A stretch of 45,980 nt of DNA, from the IMG/VR virus record IMGVR_UViG_2529292882_000016; one strand, written 5' to 3'. This DNA is from a virus. Taxonomy: Duplodnaviria; Heunggongvirae; Uroviricota; Caudoviricetes. Position numbers and translations under genes: made by a program. Positions 24,926 through 42,683 of the stretch are shown here, in pieces. Position 1 is the stretch's first letter, and every line of letters starts with the position of its first letter. The notes under the pieces are model-generated. The model worked only from the letters and a program-made list of their open reading frames with translations, ran no database searches and was not told the origin of the DNA.

Positions 24926-25309
24926 TCATCGTTTCAACTGAAAGTGAGGTCCGTCTTTCAGTGTTTTCCAGTCCCCGCCCCATTCGATGGCAGTTCCCAG
25001 CTCTGCGGCAGCCTGCTTAAATGCCTGTGCGATTTTCTCGTACAGAGGCCAGTCCCATGACACCTGGCTGCCAATGTAGGCCACAACATCCACCGCATCA
25101 CCGGTCAGGTGGCGGCTGTTCATGGTCTGGCTCTTACCTTCTGCAACCAACTGTTTCTGGCGATACTTACTGCGCAGACCTTCCGTAATACCGAAATCAA
25201 CCTCCGTCAGCTCCAGTGCACGGCGAACGACAGCAACCAGCTGTGGTTTGACGCCCTCCAGATTTTTTTCACTGCGACGGCTGAATCTGAATTTACCCGA
25301 CATATTCAC
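24926..25309 (-). CDS. Endolysin, peptidase M15-type (127 aa)
   Basis: SRHLTGDAVDV (H-x6-D) and C-terminal DGPHFQL motifs typical of zinc D-Ala/L-Ala-D-Glu peptidase endolysins; follows holin-like genes. Confidence 0.75.
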   Translation of the reverse strand: MNMSGKFRFSRRSEKNLEGVKPQLVAVVRRALELTEVDFGITEGLRSKYRQKQLVAEGKSQTMNSRHLTGDAVDVVAYIGSQVSWDWPLYEKIAQAFKQAAAELGTAIEWGGDWKTLKDGPHFQLKR

Positions 25310-25581
25310 CTCAACAATGGAAAGATTTTTGTGACGTTCCCGCGTGCGCGTATCACCAGCACGCAGAACAGCAGGTTAAAAAACACTTCCAGCCAGCCCG
25401 TTGCTAACGGGCGACCACACAGATAGCTGAGGGGCGCAAAGGCATACAGCAGCATCAGCAGCCAGGCCAGCCATGACATCAGCGGTTTATGTCTGGAATC
25501 ACGGCGACGATAAAAAAAGAGCGTCAGCACGATAACCGTGCATAACGCTACATTCAGCAATCCGGGAATGTTACTTAACAT
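25306..25581 (-). CDS. Membrane protein, lysis-associated (start probably at the ATG at 25581)
   Basis: Three hydrophobic segments; between holin-like gene and endolysin. Confidence 0.4.
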   Translation of the reverse strand: MLSNIPGLLNVALCTVIVLTLFFYRRRDSRHKPLMSWLAWLLMLLYAFAPLSYLCGRPLATGWLEVFFNLLFCVLVIRARGNVTKIFPLLR

Positions 25582-25963
25582 TGCCGCCTCCTCCACCCCG
25601 CAGACGGGAGAACAGGCCGGACACCAGCGATGCAATATCCTGCTGGTGGATGAACGAGAGAATCTTCACCGACACCACTGACACCAGTACTGCACACAAT
25701 GCGTCGACAGGTGCACCGTCAAACCCTGTATGCTTTACCAGCCAGGATGCCAGAACCTCTGCCCCCAGCACGCCGATAATGAACGACACCAGAAAATGCG
25801 CCGCCACACGCCAGGCTGAAAGCGCCTGCGGAATTGTTGCCACAAATAACGCCCCGGCGAACGCACCAAACACAATCCCGAAATCCGTTCCGGTAAACAG
25901 CCCGAATACCGTCGCCCCGCCGAGCGCCACAGCCGTGCCGGAACCGGATAAGGGTTCAGACAT
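25571..25963 (-). CDS. Holin-like membrane protein (~130 aa; start at ATG 25963 with AGGAG RBS)
   Basis: Gly/Ala-rich transmembrane helices; first gene of the lysis cassette. The longer ORF to 26188 has no ribosome-binding site. Confidence 0.5.
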   Translation of the reverse strand: MSEPLSGSGTAVALGGATVFGLFTGTDFGIVFGAFAGALFVATIPQALSAWRVAAHFLVSFIIGVLGAEVLASWLVKHTGFDGAPVDALCAVLVSVVSVKILSFIHQQDIASLVSGLFSRLRGGGGGNVK

Positions 25964-26023
25964 ACTTTTTTCTCCTGTAAATAAAAAAGGGCCACCAGCG
26001 GCCCGTAAAAAAAACACCCCGTC

Positions 26024-26050
26024 AAAGGCACCCGCAGATGCCTTTTGTGT
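26024..26050 (+). terminator. Hairpin AAAGGCA...TGCCTTT followed by TTTTGTG
   Basis: Seen directly in the holin/cassette intergenic region; function uncertain. Confidence 0.3.
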
Positions 26051-26127
26051 GGTGTTATCTGATGTGATGTGCGCCGGGCGTGGCGCGGATATGAAAAAGG
26101 CCCGCCGCAGCGAGCCCCAGAAACAAC

Positions 26128-26149
26128 AAACCCGCTCGGCGGCGGGTTT
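26128..26149 (-). terminator. Hairpin AAACCCGC-TCGGCG-GCGGGTTT with U-rich tail on the minus strand (tR'-like candidate)
   Basis: 8-bp GC-rich stem; on the minus strand it is followed by TTTGTTGTTTCT; lies upstream of the holin gene in late orientation. Confidence 0.35.
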
Positions 26150-26192
26150 AAGCTGTGTGGCGAAGTAACCACTCTTAACACGATACAATACT

Positions 26193-26221
26193 TTTTGCGT
26201 ACGCGTTAGTGTTTTAGTAAT
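26193..26221 (+). promoter_or_regulatory. Candidate sigma70 promoter for the cassette: -35 TTGCGT, 17-bp spacer, -10 TAATAT
   Basis: Hexamers read directly from the sequence about 40 bp upstream of the first cassette ATG. Confidence 0.3.
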
Positions 26222-26257
26222 ATCCTGAAGTACGTTTATCTATTGATATCTATAGAA

Positions 26258-27349
26258 ATGAAGAAAATCGAAAAACTGTTCACTGAAGTAATACGGAAGT
26301 TGCGCCATAAGAAATTTATGCGCTCGATAGCTAGTAAAAGAAGCACAACAGAAAGAAAACTAAAACGTAATGGAAGTTTAAAAAAAATCTCTCCAGAAAA
26401 AATACTTGCTCCAACCATACTTGATATTTACAAGGCGGAATATCATGAGAATGTGGTTAATTTTATAGAAAAAATAGAAAACAAAGCAAAAACAGGAAAT
26501 AAAAAGATATATATATGCTTCAGAAATACAATTCACATATCGGCTGCTGCTGGCTTATTTCTTCTTGCAAAACTAGAGACATTAAAAAGCAATCATAAGG
26601 GCTTAAAATATATCGTAGCCAAACCTCCAATTAAAACTTCATCAAAAGGAGAGCAGCACGTTGTTGATTCTGTTTTGAACAGAATCGGTATCTATGCAGC
26701 ATTAGGTGTTAAATCAAGAGAAATGAGAGAAACTCCGTCTGTAAAATGTTGGGAGGTAATTCGTGGCGAACTCGTAGATTCGGAAATTGCGGGGAACTTA
26801 TTAGAAACAATCACAGAAAGAATGGGTACCGATTATACAGATTTATATCGCCCCTTGATAGAAGCCATGTCTAATTCAGTAGAGCATGCATATCGAGACG
26901 ATTTATATGACTCAAATAAAAATAATAATAAAAATAAATGGTGGTGCTTTGCTGCAATTATGAACAACAAGTTAATATTACTAATTTGTGACCTCGGTGT
27001 CGGTATACCTAAAACGTTAAAACTCACTCAAGGTGAAAAGGTTCTTGCAAAACTAACCGAGTTCCTTGGTAAGCCATTAGTCCTTGATTCAGAACATATA
27101 AAAGCCTCATTGCAAGTTAAACGAACCCGAACAAAGCTTGGATACAGAGGGAAAGGAGGAACTGATTTACAATCTATCATAGAAAACTTTGAAAATGCAC
27201 AATTACGGATTATATCCAACAAAGGAAATTACAGATATACTCATCGTAAGAAAGCAAGACCAGAGTTAATGTGGGATGCCAAACATTCCATCAACGGTAC
27301 TATAGTTGAATGGAGCGTACCGCTACCAAATGAAGGAGACCCCCAATGA
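26258..27349 (+). CDS. GHKL-superfamily ATPase/kinase, RsbW/SpoIIAB-like C-terminal domain with ~190-aa N-terminal extension (363 aa from ATG 26258)
   Basis: N-box-like EAMSNSVEHAY, G1 box ICDLGVGIP (DxGxG), G2-like GYRGKGGTDL, with appropriate spacing; AT-rich; stop overlaps next gene's ATG (ATGA). Confidence 0.75.
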   Translation: MKKIEKLFTEVIRKLRHKKFMRSIASKRSTTERKLKRNGSLKKISPEKILAPTILDIYKAEYHENVVNFIEKIENKAKTGNKKIYICFRNTIHISAAAGLFLLAKLETLKSNHKGLKYIVAKPPIKTSSKGEQHVVDSVLNRIGIYAALGVKSREMRETPSVKCWEVIRGELVDSEIAGNLLETITERMGTDYTDLYRPLIEAMSNSVEHAYRDDLYDSNKNNNKNKWWCFAAIMNNKLILLICDLGVGIPKTLKLTQGEKVLAKLTEFLGKPLVLDSEHIKASLQVKRTRTKLGYRGKGGTDLQSIIENFENAQLRIISNKGNYRYTHRKKARPELMWDAKHSINGTIVEWSVPLPNEGDPQ

Positions 27350-27663
27350 AAACCTTATTTATCAAGGACTTTTCAAGATTCCCGGGACCTAGATACGAAA
27401 GGTTAGGTGAAAACAGTGGCGAAAAATTCCGCGATTTATTTTTGATACCAGCACTTAGCAAAGATCCAGACTTAGTCATTGACTTTGATGGTGTTTTTGG
27501 CTATGGCTCATCTTTCCTTGAGGAGGCCTTTGGAGGTTTGGTGCGTAAAGGGATAGAGCGCGAAAAATTGGAGAAGCTTAAGAAGAATCTCAAAAGTAAA
27601 GATCAATACATTATTGAGGAAGTAATTTCATATATAGATGATGCTCTGAGAGAACTAAAATAA
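27346..27663 (+). CDS. STAS-like protein, anti-sigma-factor-antagonist-like / DUF4325-like (105 aa)
   Basis: VIDFDGVFGYGSSFLEEAFGG resembles the SpoIIAA/RsbV loop (DLSGVSFMDSSGLG) including the Ser-Ser; translationally coupled on both sides. Confidence 0.7.
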   Translation: MKTLFIKDFSRFPGPRYERLGENSGEKFRDLFLIPALSKDPDLVIDFDGVFGYGSSFLEEAFGGLVRKGIEREKLEKLKKNLKSKDQYIIEEVISYIDDALRELK

Positions 27664-28124
27664 TGGACACTGACGTTACTCAGAATTTATGGACAATGCC
27701 TGCAACGATTATAGCGATTGCTGGCATTTTTTTAACAATATTAGGCTGGATAGTCACAGCAATATTTACTCGCATTAACAACGCGAAAAATTTAAAAAAA
27801 CTAGAAATAAATAGGCTTATTGATGAGTTATTTTATAAATTAGATTTCATTTATAGCGAAATGCTTGAATTGCTGCGAGACGATAAAAAAGACAAACAAG
27901 TCCTATATTACATTTTTACATCATCAGTAAGGCATGTTGAGTTTATTTGCGAGCGAATTGAGTTATTAGACAACAAGAAAAACAAAGACAATGGATTAAT
28001 ATCTGAATTAAGGCAAGCATGCACTAACGATGCGAAATATGAAAAAGAAAAAATAGGAACAACATTACATGAAATTCAAAGCGCTAATGAAAAACTCAAA
28101 AACAAATATCTAAAATCCTTTTAA
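27663..28124 (+). CDS. Small membrane protein with N-terminal transmembrane segment and helical cytoplasmic region (153 aa)
   Basis: Hydrophobic stretch MPATIIAIAGIFLTILGWIVTAIF then Lys/Glu-rich helices; start overlaps previous stop (TAATG). Confidence 0.65.
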   Translation: MDTDVTQNLWTMPATIIAIAGIFLTILGWIVTAIFTRINNAKNLKKLEINRLIDELFYKLDFIYSEMLELLRDDKKDKQVLYYIFTSSVRHVEFICERIELLDNKKNKDNGLISELRQACTNDAKYEKEKIGTTLHEIQSANEKLKNKYLKSF

Positions 28125-28130
28125 ATAAAA

Positions 28131-28165
28131 AAGGACCGGCGGCTTAGCCGGTTCCTTTTTATTTT
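28131..28165. terminator. Bidirectional rho-independent terminator between the cassette and Q
   Basis: AAAAAGGACCGGCGGCTTAGCCGGTTCCTTTTTATTTT: GC stem flanked by an A-run and a T-run. Confidence 0.7.
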
Positions 28166-28503
28166 ATTACACAAAGGCATCCATCAATAAACCCCATTGC
28201 CGTTTGCATCTCTTTCCGTATTGTTCCATCTGAACATTTCCGTTTTTTAGCAATAGCGCGTAATGAGATACCAATAACAAAGTGAGCAATGATCAACTCA
28301 TACTCTTCGGGTTTATACTTTCGCAACCGAGCCACACAACCGTCTATCATGATACCTTCGTCATCATCACACTGGAGACGTGACTTTTTACCGTGTGGTA
28401 AAAGCCCCTTGAAGCCTGCTGCTATCGGCTGCCAGTCCACACCACTGTTATCTGCTGCAGCCCAGGCCCCCCAACGATCTAAAACTTCGTACATATCACG
28501 CAT
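28159..28503 (-). CDS. Late-gene antiterminator Q, QuuD-like (114 aa from ATG 28503)
   Basis: MRDMYEVLDRWGAWAAADNSGVDWQPIAAGFKGL... and the Cys-rich QCDDDEGIMIDGC closely resemble QuuD-type Q proteins as I recall them; start overlaps upstream stop. Confidence 0.8.
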   Translation of the reverse strand: MRDMYEVLDRWGAWAAADNSGVDWQPIAAGFKGLLPHGKKSRLQCDDDEGIMIDGCVARLRKYKPEEYELIIAHFVIGISLRAIAKKRKCSDGTIRKEMQTAMGFIDGCLCVIK

Positions 28504-28760
28504 CAGCGCAGTACCTCCTGCACCAGTTTTTCGAACTTTCCAACTTTGGTTTCCAGCTCTGCCACACAATCCACCAGCTCATCCACTGCTTTTTGTGCGC
28601 GGTGTTTCGCCTGCATCAGTTCCCTGAGCGCTGGCACCATATCCTTACGAATGGCATCTTTTGTTACGCCTGTCTTTTCCAGTTGTTCCGCCTGTCGTAA
28701 CATTTCCTGTGCCTGTTTACGTAATTGTTCAGGCGTAAAAGTCATGGTCTGGTTGTTCAA
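28503..28760 (-). CDS. Hypothetical protein (85 aa)
   Basis: Helical, between DnaB-like gene and Q; overlapping start/stop junctions. Confidence 0.45.
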   Translation of the reverse strand: MNNQTMTFTPEQLRKQAQEMLRQAEQLEKTGVTKDAIRKDMVPALRELMQAKHRAQKAVDELVDCVAELETKVGKFEKLVQEVLR

Positions 28761-34759: not shown

Positions 34760-34840
34760 CACACTGGATACTCTGTTATCCAAGAATGTTAAACGCGAGA
34801 ACCCAAAGTATCAAGAAATTCTGTTACTTTAGTATCAGCA
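34760..34840. promoter_or_regulatory. Divergent promoter/operator region (OR-like) with repeated GTATC/GATAC half-sites
   Basis: GGATACTCTGTTATCC (34766..34781), AGTATCA at 34807 and 34831, TCTGTTAC at 34822; between the divergently transcribed cro-like and cI-like genes. Confidence 0.4.
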
Positions 34841-34860
34841 GCCATGAAAGGAGAAGAAAA

Positions 34861-35517
34861 ATGAAATCTTTAGGTGAACGCCTCATCAACGCACGACAAA
34901 AAGCTGGGTTAACGCAAGATGCGTTGGCTAAAAAAGCAGGGGTCACCAGAGTTGCAATCAGTAAAGCCGAGCAAGGCCTTACAAAAAGTTTCAACGGTGA
35001 CACCCTTTTTAAAGTCGCAGCTGCACTGCAGTGTTCACCGCAGTGGCTTCAGAACGGAGATGAAAAAGATAAGCATTGGGAAAATAATGTTAAGAGCTGC
35101 CCACAGAGAGACACAGCACACTCTTACCCTGTAATTAACTGGGTTCAGGCAGGATTATTCGCAACTGCTGGTGATGACTACAACATGTATGATCAGGATA
35201 ATTGGAGGCATTCTGTAAAATACGCTGGTGAGAGGGGGTTCTGGCTGGAAGTGCACGGAGACTCAATGACTTCGCCCGTAGGAATAACATTTCCTGAAGG
35301 AATGTCGATCCTTGTCAACCCAGATAAAGAAGTTTTTTCAGGGTGTTACGTCATCGCCAGAAAAAAATCTACCAATGAAGCAACATTCAAAAAATATATT
35401 TCTGAAATGGGAAAGGCGTTTCTAAAGCCCCTTAATCCACAATATCCAATCATAGAAATGGACAATGATTGCGAAATAGTAGGTGTTGTGGTTGATGCCA
35501 GGTGGGATATTTTCTGA
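34861..35517 (+). CDS. cI-type repressor, HTH plus LexA-like S24 peptidase domain (218 aa from ATG 34861)
   Basis: N-terminal HTH (LTQDALAKKAGVTRVAISKAEQG) and C-terminal S24-like region (WLEVHGDSMTSPVGITFPEGM...VIARKK...); AAGGAG RBS. Confidence 0.85.
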   Translation: MKSLGERLINARQKAGLTQDALAKKAGVTRVAISKAEQGLTKSFNGDTLFKVAAALQCSPQWLQNGDEKDKHWENNVKSCPQRDTAHSYPVINWVQAGLFATAGDDYNMYDQDNWRHSVKYAGERGFWLEVHGDSMTSPVGITFPEGMSILVNPDKEVFSGCYVIARKKSTNEATFKKYISEMGKAFLKPLNPQYPIIEMDNDCEIVGVVVDARWDIF

Positions 35518-35620: not shown

Positions 35621-36124
35621 ATGATCAATAAAGCTACAACTCTTGACTGTCTCGAAGAACTGAAAAACCTCGGCAGCCTCATTACACTAATAGCAAAAGC
35701 AACACCAGATGCTACGCTCTCTAGCGATATAGAGTCATGCGCAGGACTGGCATGGGATATGACAAATAGCATATCCAGAAAGCTATCGTCAGCAATGCTT
35801 TTACAGAACAAAAATTCTGCAATCAACAACCGTCTTCGCACCCAACGCGAAGACTGCGGCTTAACAACAGCCGAACTCGCCAGACTGCTCGACCTCGATG
35901 AAGAAATCATCATCCAGTGGGAAAGCGGAGAGCACGAACCAACCATCAGCATGCTTATCCCTCTGGCTAATGTTCTTGGCTGTGATCCGATGTGGCTGTT
36001 AACTGGCGAGGTTACTCCTCCGGAGCAACCAAAAAGTGAGGAGCAGCAACACCATGACGCATCTCAACAAGTTTGCTCCTTATCTCGCGAAGCTCTTCTA
36101 CGGAAGAACCAATACCAATGGTGA
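35621..36124 (+). CDS. XRE-family HTH protein (167 aa)
   Basis: HTH segment LTTAELARLLDLDEEIIIQWESGEHEPTISMLIPLANVLGCDPMWLLTG; GAGGT RBS; first gene after the OL-like region. Confidence 0.6.
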   Translation: MINKATTLDCLEELKNLGSLITLIAKATPDATLSSDIESCAGLAWDMTNSISRKLSSAMLLQNKNSAINNRLRTQREDCGLTTAELARLLDLDEEIIIQWESGEHEPTISMLIPLANVLGCDPMWLLTGEVTPPEQPKSEEQQHHDASQQVCSLSREALLRKNQYQW

Positions 36125-36252
36125 CATAATCGCCGCTTCGCCCCTCAAGGTACATGCGAACATTTTTATCAATCATTGCGGAAACAGTCTCAATATGAAA
36201 ACACTTCTGAGACTCGCTATATAGCAGAACATATAAGTCAGCTGAGGAAGCC

Positions 36253-36618
36253 ATGAAAAAGTTCGAAAACATAACTGTTCTCCATGTTGATGACTTTGAT
36301 TATACAAACCCGGACCTTCTCCCGGAGGTTGTAAAGGCAATAGATGTTGCCGATATAGTGATTAGAGGAAAGAGAATTGTCAAAAACAGGCTCGCATGCA
36401 CTTCAGGAGCAATGACAGAAACAACCTCACAACAAGATGATTATGAAGGCATTTGTCTGGAGCCTGACTCATTTGCGGTAAATGTTTATCATTTATTGCA
36501 TGCAACACAGGTATTACATATGTCAAGTAATCACGAAACAAAAACACTTGGCAGCGAAATTCTGAATTTTGCATGTGAATATGCAAAAGCTGCTGCCGAA
36601 AAAGAATTAGCGCAATAA
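36253..36618 (+). CDS. Hypothetical protein (121 aa), AT-rich
   Basis: ORF only; GAGGAAG upstream of the ATG. Confidence 0.45.
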   Translation: MKKFENITVLHVDDFDYTNPDLLPEVVKAIDVADIVIRGKRIVKNRLACTSGAMTETTSQQDDYEGICLEPDSFAVNVYHLLHATQVLHMSSNHETKTLGSEILNFACEYAKAAAEKELAQ

Positions 36619-36814
36619 CAATAAATATTCCCTAAATGTTTATTACGGTTTTATCGCCGGGGATTGTTGCAACCTTTATTCGCAGGAGATTATGTTATGA
36701 CTTTCCTGAAACATAAGGCATCGTATAAAACTACCCGCCTCATTGCACAACATGGAGATTCTTATCTTCATATAGCCAGCCTGTATTTGCGCAAAGCATA
36801 TGGGAGATAAGTCA

Positions 36815-37003
36815 ATGGAAGAAAAACAACAAAACATAACACATAAAAAAGTAAGAGTGTTGCTAACCATTGAAAATGGTGAAGTAATTTACTCAAAACA
36901 TCTGTTGGATAATGAATTCGTTGGCTGCATGGATACATTTCTGTGGATGGCAAAAAGAGCGGGTTACACGATTATTCCACCAGCAAAGGAGCAAACATTA
37001 TGA
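36815..37003 (+). CDS. Hypothetical small protein (62 aa)
   Basis: GGGAGA RBS before ATG 36815; stop overlaps next ATG (ATGA). Confidence 0.4.
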   Translation: MEEKQQNITHKKVRVLLTIENGEVIYSKHLLDNEFVGCMDTFLWMAKRAGYTIIPPAKEQTL

Positions 37004-37581
37004 GTCATTCAGAGTTCCGACCAGAAGTTACGCCACATGGCATAAAAATTGGCAATACAACCATTGATTATGTTGAGGCCGTACAGCGGCTTAATGATGG
37101 TGAATACGATTATCCAAACTCACACGGTTTAAGAATCATGCAATGTATTGCTGAAGCCGATGATGCAGGGTTGCTGGGACGATTTTCAGTCGATATGAAG
37201 GTTGCTCAGTGGCGATGGCTGTATGTGACTACGTTTATAAATGAAGAGAAAGACAAGAACGGTACCGTTGATATCCCTAACGATAACGGAACTACAGATC
37301 ACGCGGTTATTTACAAGGGTAAACATGGTTGCCTGAGTATCTACCCCGGACCACTTCGTATTGCCCTGCAAAACCACGTCGAATGGGGATTTATTGAAAA
37401 ATATGGCGAAGCTGAAGGCATGGGGCGAGTTCTGTTTCTCTATCAAAAAATGCTCATCGCAGATCCTGATAATGGTTTCATTATTTCTGCTATGGGGCGC
37501 GAAGGGCTTGAACTCCTTCTGGATGAAATGATGAACGACCTGAATACTCATGGTATGCCAGAAGCGCCAGTGACACATTAA
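37000..37581 (+). CDS. Hypothetical protein (193 aa)
   Basis: AAGGAG RBS 7 nt upstream of ATG 37000; translationally coupled to the upstream small ORF. Confidence 0.5.
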   Translation: MSHSEFRPEVTPHGIKIGNTTIDYVEAVQRLNDGEYDYPNSHGLRIMQCIAEADDAGLLGRFSVDMKVAQWRWLYVTTFINEEKDKNGTVDIPNDNGTTDHAVIYKGKHGCLSIYPGPLRIALQNHVEWGFIEKYGEAEGMGRVLFLYQKMLIADPDNGFIISAMGREGLELLLDEMMNDLNTHGMPEAPVTH

Positions 37582-37757
37582 ATATTAAGAAGAATATAAT
37601 TCTTCCATCTTTTACTAACCGTTTATATGAAAAGCAACCGTGAATTAAACAGAGTAAAACTGATTTTAATCCTTACCACAGTACTGACACTAACTGAAAT
37701 CATTATTCTCTTTATTGCGCTGTCAGTCGGTTAAAAATATCTGGATACCACAGACCA

Positions 37758-37946
37758 ATGAGACTGTATTTCACAATAGTAATTTTACTGGCAATTATCG
37801 CATGCATTTACGGATTACTCGTTCCGTTCCTTATATCTATGAAGGATACGATAGCAGTTATTTCTGGCTTTGCACTGGCGTTTCTGACCCCGCCCTGCAT
37901 TTATGCCATTTACAAGGGTCTTTCTTTCACTAAGGATAAAAGATGA
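37758..37946 (+). CDS. Small membrane protein (62 aa, two predicted transmembrane segments), coupled to the SPFH gene
   Basis: Hydrophobic sequence MRLYFTIVILLAIIACIYGLLVPFLIS...; stop overlaps the SPFH gene ATG (ATGA). Confidence 0.4.
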   Translation: MRLYFTIVILLAIIACIYGLLVPFLISMKDTIAVISGFALAFLTPPCIYAIYKGLSFTKDKR

Positions 37947-38770
37947 AAAAAATTATTTTTGCTTTAGCCATTGTTCTGCCGACTATTGGCCTTGTCGGTT
38001 GCGATCGCGTTGAACCAGGTAATGTTGGCATCAAGGTAAATAAACTGGGCGACGACAAAGGCGTCGGTGAGGTGGTCGGTGTTGGTCGCTACTGGACTGG
38101 CTGGAATACTGAAGTTTATATCTTCCCCACCTTCAAACAAATGAAGACCTACGATGAACCGTTCAGTTTCCAGATGAGTGACGGTACAACCATCGGCTAT
38201 CACATCGGTGTGGCCTACAAAGTTGATCCATCCAAAGTTACCACGGTGTTTCAGACCTACCGCAAAGGCGTGGATGACATTACCGACACTGACCTGCGCC
38301 AGAAGATCGCCGACGCACTCAACCGACTGGCCAGCAAAATGACCACCGACAAATTTATCGATGGCGGGAAGTCTGAACTACTGGATGCAGCTCTTAAAGA
38401 CATTCAGGAGGAAATGACACCCATCGGTATTCAGGTAATGAGCCTCTCATATGTAGGTAAGCCGGAGTACCCGTCAACCGTTATCGACAGCATTAATGCC
38501 AAAGTCACGGCGAACCAGAAAACACTGCAGCGCGAGCAGGAAGTAAAACAGCGCGAAGCGGAAGCCAATATGTTGCGCGCAGAAGCTGCCGGACAGGCTG
38601 ATGCGATTCGCACAAAAGCCCAGGCCGAAGCTGATGCTATTCGTTTACGCGGTGAAGCTCTGCGCCAGAACCCCGGCGTTATGGAGCTGGAAGCCATCAA
38701 TAAATGGAACGGCACACTGCCGCAATACATGACCAGCGGTGCTAATACACCATTTATCCAGGTTAAATAA
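37943..38770 (+). CDS. SPFH/band-7 (prohibitin/stomatin-like) domain lipoprotein (275 aa)
   Basis: Signal peptide with lipobox LVGC; central SPFH-like region and Ala/Glu-rich coiled-coil tail (EAEANMLRAEAAGQADAIRTKAQAEADAIRLRGEALRQNPGVMELEAINKWNG). Confidence 0.75.
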   Translation: MKKIIFALAIVLPTIGLVGCDRVEPGNVGIKVNKLGDDKGVGEVVGVGRYWTGWNTEVYIFPTFKQMKTYDEPFSFQMSDGTTIGYHIGVAYKVDPSKVTTVFQTYRKGVDDITDTDLRQKIADALNRLASKMTTDKFIDGGKSELLDAALKDIQEEMTPIGIQVMSLSYVGKPEYPSTVIDSINAKVTANQKTLQREQEVKQREAEANMLRAEAAGQADAIRTKAQAEADAIRLRGEALRQNPGVMELEAINKWNGTLPQYMTSGANTPFIQVK

Positions 38771-38804
38771 CTTATACGCCCGGCAGGCCGCCGGGCTAAG
38801 GGAA

Positions 38805-39170
38805 ATGCAAATGAACACCCAGAATACTCAACCGCAAATAATGAACTATGACCCGAATCTGACGTCATGCGGACGCATGGCAAAACAAACCGTTCGATTA
38901 ACTTTCGGGCTATGGGAATACCGCGAAACATTCGAAGTTACTGTCGGCGGCAATCTGACCGGACTGGATGTTATCAGTTGCGCTATTGAAAGCCTGTACG
39001 CAACGCTGCCTTATGAAGAAGTCGAGGATGAGCGCGATATCATAGCCACCATTAATATCGGCGGACTGGAATGCAAGGATGAAAACCTGTCCGGAGAGCT
39101 CTGGCTTGCCGGAATGCTTATCTCAGCAGAAATTATCAGCATTGAACCCGCTACAAACATACGACTCTGA
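38805..39170 (+). CDS. Hypothetical protein (121 aa)
   Basis: ORF with AGGGA upstream of ATG 38805; preceded by a GC-rich intercistronic hairpin (GCCCGGC...GCCGGGC). Confidence 0.45.
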   Translation: MQMNTQNTQPQIMNYDPNLTSCGRMAKQTVRLTFGLWEYRETFEVTVGGNLTGLDVISCAIESLYATLPYEEVEDERDIIATINIGGLECKDENLSGELWLAGMLISAEIISIEPATNIRL

Positions 39171-39201
39171 AGTTCTCACTATTCAGAGAACAGGAGAAAA
39201 A

Positions 39202-39444
39202 ATGTTCGCTTTGATTAATCAGGGACAACTGTATACCGACAGTGCCGGTTACCCGATAAAAATTATTCGCTGCATAAATAACACTGTGTTGTACAGAAGA
39301 ATGGATGGGCAAATGCAGTCGATAAAAATAAACGATTTTAATGGACTGTTTGAACGGATCGATCACCAGGAATACCGACAAATTCTGGCAGAAACAGAGC
39401 AGGAAGCTCATCTGAAAAAATTACGGGCCATGAAAAGGAAGTAA
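39202..39444 (+). CDS. Hypothetical protein (80 aa)
   Basis: AGGAG RBS upstream of ATG 39202. Confidence 0.45.
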   Translation: MFALINQGQLYTDSAGYPIKIIRCINNTVLYRRMDGQMQSIKINDFNGLFERIDHQEYRQILAETEQEAHLKKLRAMKRK

Positions 39445-39602: not shown

Positions 39603-39812
39603 GTGGGGCTGGATTGCGTACCTATATCAACCTACTGCCGCAACGCAGGAGAAACGGTTGATGCCGTTAACAAACGGATACAAAGAGGAATATGGAAAGA
39701 AGGGGTACATGTATTAAAAGTCGACGGAGTTAAAGAACGTTGGGTCGACTTAATGGAGATTACAAAATGGGCAAGAAAGAACAAGGATCACTATCTCTCC
39801 CTAGAGGAGTAA
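39603..39812 (+). CDS. xis: Excisionase-like protein (69 aa; GTG start assumed)
   Basis: Small basic protein immediately upstream of and overlapping int, as in lambda xis-int; winged-helix-like composition. Confidence 0.5.
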   Translation: MGLDCVPISTYCRNAGETVDAVNKRIQRGIWKEGVHVLKVDGVKERWVDLMEITKWARKNKDHYLSLEE

Positions 39813-40939
39813 CTATTCGCCAGCATAAAACTGGTAGCACTCTGGTTATCACTTTTACATATAAAGGGGTTCTGTGTCGGGAGCCCCTCTCCAGAATGGA
39901 AGTAAACGCGCGCGGTGTGAAGTACGCTGAGCGTCTGCTGGGAGAAATAAAAAATCAGATTATCGATGGTACCTTCGAATATGCAAAATACTTCCCCAAC
40001 TCCCAAAAGCTGGAGTTGTTCGGGGGAGTGAAAAAAAACAAAAATATAAAATCTTACCTGGATGAATACCTGATTATCTGCCAGAACCGTAACCTGTCAC
40101 CATCGACAATTAGAGGTTATGAAAAATGCCTGTCGGCGCTGTCAGCATTGCATAAATTTCATGTATCAGAACTGACACCTGCAGTACTAAAAAACTGGAT
40201 CGCCAGCAGAAAAACAAAACTGAAAACTATCCGCAATAATCTTTCATTCTTGCGCAGCGCCATAGATGAAGCGGTGACCGATGGTTTGTTAACAATAAAT
40301 CCTGTCACGCTAGTCAGCGCCAGCCGGTATCACGTATTGGACAACACACCAGGCAGTGATGATTACGAGGTCGATCCTTTTACACCAGCGGAGACGGCAG
40401 CAATCTATGACGCCTGTCATTACCCGGAATGGCGAAATCTGTTTCGCTTTGCCTTTAATACAGGACTGCGCAGCTCAGAATTGTGCGCGTTGCGCTGGAC
40501 GGATATAGACTTTATCGGCAACACCGCGCATGTTCAGACTGCAAGCGTAGTCGGGGTAATCAAAAGCACCAAAACAAAAGCCGGCACCCGCAAAGTGCAA
40601 CTGAACAGCGAAGCGCTGGCGGCTCTTCAGGCACAAAAGCCCTACACGGCGCTAAAGAGCGACTTCATATTCAGCGATCCGAAAACTCGCGCTCCTTGGG
40701 CAAACGCAGATGCGATCCGAAAAAAAGCCTGGGTACCAACCCTTAAAAAAGCTGGTGTACGCTATCGCAATCCGTACCAGACACGCCACACGTTCGCCAC
40801 TCGGCACATTAGCCAGGGCGTTAACCTGTTCTGGCTTGCTGGTCAGATGGGGCATAAAGGACCGGAAATGCTGTTCAGACATTACGGCTCTTACCTTGCA
40901 GAATACGATGGAAAAACGGCGATTTCTGCAACCCCGTAA
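39767..40939 (+). CDS. int: Tyrosine integrase, lambda Int-like (390 aa from ATG 39767)
   Basis: C-terminal catalytic region with RHTFATRHISQG...RHYGSYL (R/H/R/Y-type motifs); transcribed toward the att repeat at 41072. Confidence 0.85.
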   Translation: MGKKEQGSLSLPRGVTIRQHKTGSTLVITFTYKGVLCREPLSRMEVNARGVKYAERLLGEIKNQIIDGTFEYAKYFPNSQKLELFGGVKKNKNIKSYLDEYLIICQNRNLSPSTIRGYEKCLSALSALHKFHVSELTPAVLKNWIASRKTKLKTIRNNLSFLRSAIDEAVTDGLLTINPVTLVSASRYHVLDNTPGSDDYEVDPFTPAETAAIYDACHYPEWRNLFRFAFNTGLRSSELCALRWTDIDFIGNTAHVQTASVVGVIKSTKTKAGTRKVQLNSEALAALQAQKPYTALKSDFIFSDPKTRAPWANADAIRKKAWVPTLKKAGVRYRNPYQTRHTFATRHISQGVNLFWLAGQMGHKGPEMLFRHYGSYLAEYDGKTAISATP

Positions 40940-41071
40940 CGGCAAAATATTTCAAAATGTTGTACAGAATCAGGACGTTACCGGGACAACAATATGTACG
41001 TAAAATGCACATAATTCATTGTTTGAAAAAATAAATCGTTCATATTCAATAAATTGGATTAATCACGATCA

Positions 41072-41098
41072 CGGGTTCAACTCCCGCCAGCTCCACCA
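41072..41098. repeat. Second copy of the 27-bp att direct repeat (displaced ssrA 3' end)
   Basis: Identical to 1034..1060; the downstream flank (AAATTCTCCATCGGTGATTACC...) carries a terminator hairpin and is then followed by a P4-type integrase, as at the chromosomal ssrA locus. Confidence 0.85.
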
Positions 41099-41145
41099 AA
41101 ATTCTCCATCGGTGATTACCAGAGTCATCCGATGAAGTCCTAAGA

Positions 41146-41178
41146 GCCCGCACGGCGCAAGCCCTGCGGGCTTTTTTG
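41146..41178 (+). terminator. Rho-independent terminator (probable original ssrA terminator)
   Basis: GCCCGCA...TGCGGGC stem followed by TTTTTTGTG. Confidence 0.6.
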
Positions 41179-41303
41179 TGCCCTCAATTTGTCCCGCGAA
41201 GTCCGAAGAAAACTAATTAAATCCGATCCTTTTAGGCACCTTGTTAGGCACCTCATAAAGCTTTATTGTTTTTTGAGGTGCCTAAAACTATGGAAACCCG
41301 GCA

Positions 41304-42545
41304 ATGGCAAGACAAACCAAACCTCTATCCGTTAAAGAAATAGAATCAGCCAAACCCAAGGAGGCGGACTACGTTCTCTATGATGGCGATGGCCTTGAGC
41401 TACTCATTAAATCCAGCGGGAGTAAAATCTGGCAGTTTCGCTACATTCGCCCTGTCACCAAGAAACGAGCAAAGAAGAGCATAGGCTCCTACCCGTCAGT
41501 TACCCTTGCCGATGCCAGAAACTACCGTGCAGAGTCCCGCTCACTACTGGCTAAACAGATCGATCCGCAGGAACATCAGCAAGAACAATTGCGCAGTTCG
41601 CTGGAAGCCAAAACCAACACTTTCCAACTCGTAGCTGAACGTTGGTGGAATGTGAAGAAAGCCAGTGTGACAGAGGACTATGCGGAAGATATCTGGCGCT
41701 CTCTTGAAAGAGACGTCTTTCCTGCGATTGGCGACGTTAGCGTTACAGATATTAAAGCTCATACACTGGTTCAGGCCGTACAACCGGTTCAGGCCAGAGG
41801 AGCACTGGAAACTGTTCGTCGCCTGTGCCAACGTATTAATGAGGTCATGATCTATGCCCAGAACACAGGGCTGATTGATGCTGTTCCCAGCGTTAATATC
41901 GGTAAAGCCTTCGAGAAGCCTCAGAAAAAGAACATGCCCAGCATTCGACCGGATCAGCTACCTCAGTTAATGCAGACGATGCGAACAGCCAGCATTAGCC
42001 TTTCCACACGCTGCCTGTTCATGTGGCAACTTCTTACTATTACCCGCCCTGCCGAAGCGGCTGAAGCTCTCTGGGAAGAGGTAGACATAGAAGCGCGAGA
42101 GTGGAAGATTCCTGCAGCACGCATGAAAATGAACCGCGACCATACTGTTCCATTGTCAGATGAAGCAATTGCGATACTAGAGATGATGAAGCCGTTAAGT
42201 GGAAATCGAGAATTTATCTTTCCCAGCCGCATCAAGCCAAACCAGCCGATGAACAGTCAGACCGTAAACGCATCGCTAAAACGCGCAGGTTTTGGTGGGG
42301 TGCTCGTTTCACACGGCCTGCGATCTATCGCCAGTACAGCCCTTAATGAGCAGGGATTTCCACCTGATGTTATTGAGGCTGCACTTGCTCATGTGGATAA
42401 GAATGAGGTTCGTCGTGCGTATAACCGTAGTGATTATCTTGAGCAGCGACGGCCTATGATGCAGTGGTGGGCTGATTTTGTGATGGCTGCAGATCACGGT
42501 AGTATGATTGAAGGAGGGATAAAGGCAATGCGGTTAGTTGGATGA
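41304..42545 (+). CDS. intA: P4-type tyrosine integrase, CP4-57 IntA-like (413 aa)
   Basis: N-terminus MARQTKPLSVKEIESAKPKEADYVLYDGDGLELLIKSSGSKIWQFRY and C-terminus ...HVDKNEVRRAYNRSDYLEQRRPMMQWWADF typical of P4-family integrases; about 200 bp after the ssrA 3' end. Confidence 0.85.
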   Translation: MARQTKPLSVKEIESAKPKEADYVLYDGDGLELLIKSSGSKIWQFRYIRPVTKKRAKKSIGSYPSVTLADARNYRAESRSLLAKQIDPQEHQQEQLRSSLEAKTNTFQLVAERWWNVKKASVTEDYAEDIWRSLERDVFPAIGDVSVTDIKAHTLVQAVQPVQARGALETVRRLCQRINEVMIYAQNTGLIDAVPSVNIGKAFEKPQKKNMPSIRPDQLPQLMQTMRTASISLSTRCLFMWQLLTITRPAEAAEALWEEVDIEAREWKIPAARMKMNRDHTVPLSDEAIAILEMMKPLSGNREFIFPSRIKPNQPMNSQTVNASLKRAGFGGVLVSHGLRSIASTALNEQGFPPDVIEAALAHVDKNEVRRAYNRSDYLEQRRPMMQWWADFVMAADHGSMIEGGIKAMRLVG

Positions 42546-42625
42546 CATGTCGTAGCTAAAACCCGTTCTGTTTTTGGGTAGATTAACCTGAAGGTCTGCA
42601 ATTTTAAATGACGCTGAAAGAAGTT

Positions 42626-42651
42626 AAACCCTGCTCTTAAGCAGGGTTTTT
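42626..42651. terminator. Bidirectional terminator hairpin AAACCCTGC-TCTTAA-GCAGGGTTT
   Basis: 9-bp stem with T-run on plus and a T-rich tract on minus; lies between the convergent intA-like gene and the 767-aa gene. Confidence 0.6.
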
Positions 42652-42683
42652 ATGATTTATTCTAATTTTGGTTTTGAATCTTT

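Follow-up and report, generated by a model that had tools for sequence, protein, structure and literature searches.

A kinase, STAS and membrane-protein gene trio beside antiterminator Q in an Escherichia coli prophage, probably a membrane-effector variant of the VapKSC family

The window analysed here is a stretch of 45,980 nucleotides from a virus of the Caudoviricetes (IMG/VR record IMGVR_UViG_2529292882_000016). At positions 26193-28165 it carries an AT-rich cassette of three genes, placed between the gene for antiterminator Q and the lysis genes of a prophage. The host is Escherichia coli: many chromosomes of this species match the window's right end (41000-45980) at 99.9% identity. The cassette is probably a membrane-effector variant of the VapKSC kinase/STAS family. 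A sequence-only reading of this DNA had placed three plus-strand genes in the interval, encoding a kinase-like, a STAS-like and a membrane protein, and all three open reading frames (ORFs) were confirmed exactly at the coordinates proposed:

26258..27349, plus strand: gene 1, VapK-like sensor kinase of 363 amino acids (STAS-like domain and GHKL motifs)
27346..27663, plus strand: gene 2, VapS-like STAS protein of 105 amino acids (Pfam DUF4325; PF14213, E 2.1e-14)
27663..28124, plus strand: gene 3, single-pass inner-membrane protein of 153 amino acids, presumed effector (topology and structural model)

The ORF list begins gene 1 at an upstream TTG (26243); RefSeq (E. coli PSUO2) and the homologues begin it at ATG 26258. 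The overlaps through which the genes had been thought to be coupled, ATGA between genes 1 and 2 and TAATG between genes 2 and 3, can be read directly in the sequence, where a GGAG motif is also seen nine bases 5' of gene 2. The three genes are translationally coupled, and their order is kept across deep divergence. The base composition of the cassette is likewise as had been described: its GC fraction is 0.347 against 0.499 in the remainder of the window, and all other segments of 1973 bp have values of at least 0.357 (mean 0.497, sd 0.044).

Gene 1 consists of a basic tail (amino acids 1-45, with 17 Lys/Arg against 3 Asp/Glu), a STAS-like domain (about residues 48-170) and a GHKL serine kinase domain (about residues 175-355). 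The GHKL motifs noticed earlier form a Bergerat-fold set that is invariant across an alignment of 63 homologues, with E202, N206 and H210 in the N box, D245-x-G247-x-G249 in the G1 box, R297-G298-x-G300 in the G2 box and G347-T348 in the G3 box. By computation the protein is a STAS domain joined to a SpoIIAB/RsbW-type GHKL kinase with an intact ATP site, for which kinase activity is predicted. Gene 1 has no Pfam match, and neither gene 1 nor gene 3 gives anything significant in Pfam, NCBIfam or PADLOC, the only PHROGs matches being to families of unknown function; the NCBIfam RsbW model meets the cassette kinase at E 0.023, with 14 bits against a cutoff of 145. Sequence searches of the PDB with profiles of genes 1 and 2 returned marginal matches to RsbW, SpoIIAB and STAS proteins, and did not retrieve the CapS/VapS entries (9Z71, 9Z7O). 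No helix-turn-helix (HTH) was detected in the N-terminus of gene 1, which is a basic helix. Within the STAS domain, residue 95 (codon 26540-26542) stands at the anti-sigma-antagonist phospho-site and is Thr in 46 and Ser in 13 of the 63 homologues; the equivalent position in VapK is Arg. A Ser/Thr in the kinase's own STAS domain hints at autophosphorylation in cis or at pseudo-substrate control.

Gene 2, called STAS-like in the earlier reading, is assigned by Pfam to 'STAS-like DUF4325'. The Ser-Ser loop to which attention had been drawn is almost completely conserved, S55 being present in 67 and S56 in all 68 of 68 distinct homologues, and the motif around it, G-Y-G-S55-S56-F-L-E-E-x-F-G-G, is essentially invariant (Ser codons 27508-27513). 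The two serines lie at the canonical phospho-acceptor position, phosphorylation itself being putative. In PHROGs, gene 2 matches only positions 342-439 of the 441-position profile phrog_5816; some phages must therefore encode a longer protein whose C-terminus resembles DUF4325, perhaps a fusion of the kinase with DUF4325.

The third gene encodes a membrane protein, as had been proposed, with a transmembrane helix at about residues 11-33. In the structural model this helix is continuous with an up-down four-helix bundle. Lys/Arg residues lie C-terminal to the membrane span in 52/52 non-redundant homologues, which share an N-out/C-in topology, so the bundle is placed in the cytoplasm. Residues 117-123 (28011-28031) form a near-invariant motif, R/K-x-x-x-T-x-(D), in which T121 (codon 28023-28025) and R/K117 are each kept in 51 of the 52 sequences. 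The motif persists in homologues of less than 20% identity, and very distant members carry it as FRRAITGADF or FRKAITSG. The STAS protein might bind here, or the motif might provide a second phospho-site. Pfam identified no domain in gene 3, PIN or otherwise.

VapKSC is a three-gene anti-phage toxin-antitoxin system formed by VapK (STAS-GHKL), VapS (STAS) and the PIN toxin VapC (Chambers et al., EMBO J 2026, PMC13373217). VapK is proposed to phosphorylate VapS on Ser48, and VapS binds and inhibits VapC; the evidence includes a crystal structure of the VapS-VapC complex, release of the toxin by S48E and a 2-log protection against phage Bas42, which is lost in D28A, S48A and F54A mutants (PMC13373217). 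The system is often found near other defence genes (PMC13373217). VapK and VapS sequences were taken from the supplementary AlphaFold model file of that paper for comparison with the cassette. The gene order, kinase, STAS protein and third gene, is the same. The gene 1 family aligns with VapK over both domains (hhalign probability 88%, E 2.9e-6, 241 columns), and VapK matches the hidden Markov model (HMM) of gene 1 at E 2e-7. VapS and gene 2, both of about 105-116 amino acids, belong to PF14213 (VapS at E 2.7e-17); VapS matches the gene 2 HMM at E 2.3e-5, with its S48 aligned to S55 of gene 2. On these profile comparisons, the sensing half of the trio is homologous to VapK/VapS. There are also clear differences. 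In place of a PIN nuclease, the third gene encodes a single-pass membrane protein with a four-helix bundle; gene 1 begins with an additional basic tail of 45 residues and keeps Ser/Thr at the canonical phospho-site of its STAS domain (59/63), where VapK has Arg; gene 2 carries two invariant serines; and the aromatic residue that serves for single-stranded DNA (ssDNA) in VapK (F54) and in the kinase CapK (W68) is not conserved in the gene 1 family. The trio and VapKSC thus appear as separate subfamilies with low sequence identity.

A role in defence is a reasonable hypothesis for the trio. More specifically, it may be a prophage-borne, phosphorylation-gated system of exclusion or abortive infection in which a membrane protein takes the place of VapC, a proposal for and against which the balance is about even. 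In the lysogen, unphosphorylated gene 2 protein would bind the cytoplasmic bundle of gene 3 and keep gene 3 inactive. A cue from an infecting phage would activate the gene 1 kinase, which would phosphorylate Ser55 or Ser56 of gene 2; the phosphorylated protein would let go, and the freed gene 3 protein would oligomerise or otherwise perturb or depolarise the inner membrane. The infection would then be aborted or the incoming phage excluded, with an outcome functionally like that of lambda RexAB. The trigger would be an infection-specific signal other than DNA damage, possibly read by the basic N-terminal tail of gene 1. A different cue is to be expected because the ssDNA-contact residue is not conserved and because a trigger based on DNA damage would fire at the prophage's own induction. 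Each step of this signalling chain is put forward conditionally; what was observed are the identities of the domains, their conservation, the coupling of the genes and the slots occupied in the genome.

Several points weigh against this proposal. Gene 3 is without a catalytic or pore-forming signature, its fold matches are generic helical bundles only, and its role as effector is presumed from operon position and membrane topology. Beyond the Pfam core gene 2 resembles VapS only weakly (hhalign E 0.011), and it does not have the long C-terminal extension by which VapS blocks VapC. VapK F54, a predicted ssDNA contact, aligns with the variable column of H93 in the window's protein (H in 12, R in 9 and Y in 7 of 63, and others), in an alignment-dependent and moderately reliable correspondence. 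The PADLOC-DB 2.0.0 models contain no family that matches any of the three proteins at E<=1, and the literature search yielded no other paper on the trio architecture and no experimental test of the trio. Finally, with CI or Q as neighbour, a role in phage regulation would fit as well.

The same parts could be wired differently. By classical partner switching, which is the picture of the sequence-only reading with a membrane protein instead of sigma, the kinase would act like an anti-sigma factor and hold the helical domain of gene 3 until unphosphorylated gene 2 protein displaced it, as might happen if ATP fell or if the kinase were inhibited in the course of infection. It fits such a scheme that, by structure, the kinase domain is most like the anti-sigma factors SpoIIAB, RsbW and UsfX, that the cytoplasmic part of gene 3 is an all-helical bundle, and that there is no phosphatase gene, so that ATP level or protein turnover could set the system. 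In VapKSC and CapKS (CapK-CapS), however, the only characterised relatives, it is the STAS protein that binds the output, and phosphorylation releases it; moreover, gene 1 has its own N-terminal STAS domain, which anti-sigma factors do not. Partner switching is for these reasons held to be unlikely. Gene 3 could on the other hand be a membrane sensor or anchor, responding to DNA injection or the envelope, with the kinase as the effector acting on host or phage proteins and gene 2 as a pseudo-substrate brake; the result would be superinfection exclusion and not suicide. All 52 homologues of gene 3 have a short periplasmic N-terminus in their N-out/C-in arrangement and no recognisable toxic domain, the very basic tail of gene 1 could bind nucleic acid or membrane, and T121 of gene 3, with R/K at -4, could be a phospho-site. 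Yet the gene order mirrors that of VapKSC, whose third gene is the toxin. Kinases of the RsbW/SpoIIAB type are, to our knowledge, dedicated to their STAS partner, which also counts against this assignment of roles, and it is judged quite improbable.

The proposal of a membrane effector released by gene 2 concerns a unit that is not confined to the window. The expectation that the three genes would be found together elsewhere was borne out: in 79 of 89 sequences, homologues of the kinase, the STAS protein and gene 3 follow one another in this order on a single strand, for the most part with overlaps, and the other ten are cut by contig ends or have an ORF of similar size in the third position. 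The 89 sequences comprise 79 viral-contig loci from the kinase profile search, the window itself and nine loci from E. coli or other bacterial genomes. A separate, exhaustive profile search for the kinase gave 3,985 clusters (50% identity) at E<=1e-3 and 1,571 at E<=1e-30, and the best 150 listed are nearly all full length. Relatives of gene 3 were few by word-indexed searches and were extended with HMMs built from the retrieved loci; distant homologues of gene 3 that were found independently reside in the same kinase-STAS-gene 3 trio, and three distant kinases sampled from the exhaustive profile search are each in the same trio. By source names, the family extends across the Gammaproteobacteria (Klebsiella, Serratia, Pectobacterium, Vibrio, Pseudomonas and Marinobacter). 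The layout recurs in a Francisella prophage, with CI followed by a 293-amino-acid hypothetical protein, a DUF4325 protein and a transmembrane protein (PMC7924643). Of 5,426 complete E. coli genomes, only 6 carry the exact cassette, again in the Q-adjacent slot but with a different lysis cassette alongside. Among deposited phages, a protein search found a homologue in one of 50,697 genomes (Marinobacter phage AS1, behind the repressor), and a nucleotide search with the cassette gave no match. The distribution is patchy, and the trio has been moved horizontally. It is also present in the Vibrio parahaemolyticus chromosome, in a non-prophage variable region between repeated DUF3693 ORFs. In the V. 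parahaemolyticus loci a 152-amino-acid ORF on the opposite strand abuts the trio, and one strain has a nearby gene of metallo-beta-lactamase fold with a faint match to Apyc1 (anti-Pycsar).

In 57 non-redundant loci, the gene immediately upstream encodes a CI/LexA-type repressor in about half (Peptidase_S24 in 20, Phage_CI_repr in 9), and a divergent ORF of the size of cro is typical of these CI-adjacent loci. Downstream neighbours in the 57 loci include a P2-like portal (8), the large terminase (7), an integrase (6) and Q (4, the layout of the window). P2-like loci have an ORF of 750-830 amino acids upstream, identified by Pfam as gpA in the one case where it is the nearest upstream gene; the setting of portal, terminase and gpA is that of the P2 old/tin hotspot. 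Trios placed behind CI are separated from it by less than 60 bp and so probably share a transcript with the repressor in lysogens; in a Pectobacterium prophage, for example, the trio lies between CI and int with a gap of 17 bp after CI. The slots are, as computed over these loci, either expressed in lysogens or known hotspots of defence genes. With its foreign GC content, its own terminator, its variable presence among related phages and its known cargo slots, the trio has the marks of lambdoid/P2 'moron'-type cargo, expression in the lysogen being predicted.

The trio's closeness to master regulators could also mean that it serves the phage's own life cycle, by tuning induction, timing lysis or maintaining lysogeny according to DNA damage or the state of the host: about half of the loci have it directly behind CI, and in the window it stands between Q and the lysis genes and travels with Q. 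DNA damage, the prophage-inducing signal, is also what its relatives CapK and VapK respond to. Against this stand the non-prophage location in V. parahaemolyticus, the related trios of kinase, DUF4325 and a protein with one transmembrane helix in P2/P4 cargo hotspots, the occurrence in only six of the E. coli genomes, the absence from most relatives of the same phages and the foreign base composition. A core life-cycle function is disfavoured because the trio is too dispensable and too mobile, and this explanation seems distinctly improbable. A plain addiction module, which would keep the prophage or island stable and sense no phage specifically, is very improbable: the architecture of a toxin with a labile neutraliser would fit, and VapKSC itself is framed as a toxin-antitoxin system, but simple addiction would not call for a dedicated, highly conserved kinase whose ATP site is intact and which bears a STAS domain of sensor type, and the association with defence hotspots points to conflict with phages.

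The flanks of the cassette and the other landmarks of the prophage are as follows:

24926-25309, minus strand: M15 endolysin (Pfam)
25306-25635, minus strand: holin, Phage_holin_3_7 (Pfam)
25571-26188, minus strand: holin, Phage_holin_8 (Pfam)
26127..26150, minus strand: terminator-like hairpin, candidate late-operon tR'-type terminator (9-pair stem, then TTGTTTCT)
26192..26209, no strand assigned: invariant 18-mer TTTTTGCGTACGCGTTAG, containing the palindrome GCGTACGC (five loci; single copy in the window)
TTGCGT 26195-26200, 17 bp, TAATAT 26218-26223, plus strand: candidate promoter of the trio (sequence and conservation)
28133..28154, no strand assigned: bidirectional intrinsic terminator, common to the trio (plus) and the Q gene (minus), with a T run on each side
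28159..28569, minus strand: antiterminator Q (PF06530, E 2.6e-47)
34786-35517: prophage CI
39740-40939: prophage integrase

The cassette does lie opposite to the late operon in the interval from Q to the holins, with minus-strand genes on both flanks, Q on the right and the holins and endolysin on the left. The promoter-like element TTGCGT-17-TAATAT of the sequence-only reading fared less uniformly: it is present, but only 7 of its 12 positions agree with the sigma-70 consensus, and it is missing from the output of the promoter scan. TTGCGT, the spacing of 17 bp and a hexamer of the form TAnnnT are kept in all five orthologous loci, which are only about 72% identical overall, and for this reason the element is taken as conserved and not as a chance match. 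The 18-mer TTTTTGCGTACGCGTTAG, which includes the -35 hexamer TTGCGT, is invariant in the same five loci. It may be the operator and -35 region of the trio promoter or, on the minus strand, a Q-binding element of the late promoter with the terminator following it. Just to its left, at 26165-26185, lies a second conserved stretch, CACTCTTAACAC. Three successive terminator-like hairpins on the minus strand (26150-26127, 26118-26097 and 26004-25989) lie between the cassette and the holins, the expectation of the hairpin scan being 2.8 across the entire scanned region; the array at 25989-26150 looks like a stacked tR'-type terminator region through which Q would allow reading. Silencing of the cassette by antisense late transcription was considered and judged unlikely, given the conserved 18-mer and the terminators on its left. 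At the other end, the terminator that had been described as bidirectional, the hairpin at 28133-28154, scored as a terminator on both strands.

The true start of Q is likely ATG 28503-28505, which would give a protein of 114 amino acids. Its PF06530 domain begins at residue 23 of the ORF, the RefSeq Q gene in E. coli PSUO2 is 345 bp long, and the homology blocks with E. coli PSUO2 (95%) and with the Buttiauxella and IMG/VR loci (72%) all end at 28503-28505. The left edge of the block is at 26113 with E. coli PSUO2 and at 26147 with the loci of 72% identity. Since homology spans 26113/26147 to 28503-28505, the trio travels with Q and with about 110-145 bp of left flank, in which the hairpin at 26127-26150 and the 18-mer are situated. 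In the holin ORF 25571-26188 (205 amino acids, minus strand) the Phage_holin_8 domain begins at residue 76; the ORF is probably over-extended, with a likely true start at a Met near 25966, and with that start the GC-rich DNA left of the cassette would be non-coding for about 290 bp.

The slot after this prophage's own CI (35621-39444, plus strand; GC about 0.40 at 36000-38000) is the place of the trio in most relatives but is filled here by other small ORFs, among them those for an HTH protein (35621-36124) and for an SPFH/Band-7 protein (37943-38770); at system level, PADLOC found no match in this slot. A second strongly AT-rich region, 42684-44987 on the minus strand (GC 0.34-0.40), holds a 767-amino-acid ORF with no Pfam or PADLOC match. 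Its neighbours are a second integrase (41304-42545) and an IS3 element; the region lies just beyond the prophage and is possibly cargo of an adjacent integrative island.

Should the trio protect lysogens, it would represent a third output of the kinase/STAS pair, a membrane effector, beside the repressor of CapKS and the nuclease of VapKSC, and it would put a name to an abundant temperate-phage cargo that is now annotated as hypothetical proteins only. Its abundance is considerable, with relatives in 68 P2-hotspot loci of one E. coli survey and a kinase family of thousands of clusters. A bolder and only tentative version of the same idea is that the trio is the founding example of a large (>1,500 clusters at 50% identity), prophage-centred immunity family, in which a VapK-like kinase would respond to a cue other than ssDNA, perhaps through its basic tail, might be restrained in cis by its STAS domain, and would act through a STAS adaptor that switches on a new small membrane effector. 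If so, a RexAB-like exclusion device would have been built from the parts of anti-sigma-factor systems, and the kinase/STAS sensor would be a portable module set on unrelated effectors (a PIN nuclease, a repressor and a membrane protein). A trio in the slot of lambda rexAB also offers a tractable route to how a lysogen tells a superinfecting phage from its own induction, a puzzle that is real here because the characterised relatives fire on DNA damage. Gene 3 offers a small and well-predicted membrane protein for the study of its mode of action.

Among the other systems with which the cassette can be compared is CapK-CapS. CapK, composed of an HTH, a STAS and a GHKL kinase domain, is activated by ssDNA and phosphorylates the STAS-winged-HTH repressor CapS; the pair is a transcriptional controller of CBASS, Bub and Thoeris operons, with the CapS gene immediately downstream (PMC13373217). 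The trio resembles it in that a STAS partner with a conserved Ser is encoded directly after a GHKL kinase that contains a STAS domain of its own. It differs in two respects. CapK bears an HTH at its N-terminus and CapS a winged HTH at its C-terminus, whereas gene 2 is a STAS domain only, of 105 amino acids; and no immune operon follows the trio, only gene 3 and a terminator. Identity with CapKS was rejected on the grounds of the HTH domains and the downstream operon, neither of which the cassette has. With RsbW-RsbV and SpoIIAB-SpoIIAA the difference is that the cassette kinase carries a STAS domain of its own. As had been stated in the sequence-only reading, no sigma factor is encoded in the cassette or by its neighbours, and neither is a PP2C phosphatase; a sigma-type partner-switching module was rejected on these two absences.

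Related trios are listed among the cargo of P2 and P4 hotspots. The supplementary tables of Rousset et al. 2022 (PMC9122126) contain a 'DUF4325' P2 system 61 with 68 occurrences and a 'HATPase_c | DUF4325' P4 system 69 with 9 occurrences, and these share with the trio the combination of a kinase, a DUF4325 protein and a protein with one transmembrane helix. The first and second proteins match the HMMs at E 1.9e-57 and 5.2e-36, and at 7.1e-38 and 1.7e-29; the third proteins give no HMM match and resemble gene 3 weakly, in the transmembrane and juxtamembrane helix (hhalign E 1.8e-5 and 4.8e-4). The table of tested systems in the same paper holds no kinase/STAS motifs (PMC9122126). It was also asked of Rst_3HP, described as 'three genes with no clear domain' and protective against P1 (Rousset 2022, PMC9122126), whether it could be the same system. 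This identity was rejected on the tested-systems table and on the missing PADLOC match, Rst_3HP being set apart without a sequence comparison with 3HP.

The rexAB genes of lambda lie immediately downstream of cI in the immunity operon, which is the slot taken by the trio in most phages, and RexA/RexB share with it the proposed logic of a cytoplasmic sensor and a membrane effector in the lysogen. RexB is polytopic. We know of no sequence or fold relationship between RexA/RexB and the trio, and of no kinase or STAS domain in Rex. Taken together, kinase-STAS sensing as found in VapKSC and CapKS, and the related trios listed by Rousset et al., were already known; what the present cassette would add is a membrane protein as the third component and putative effector.

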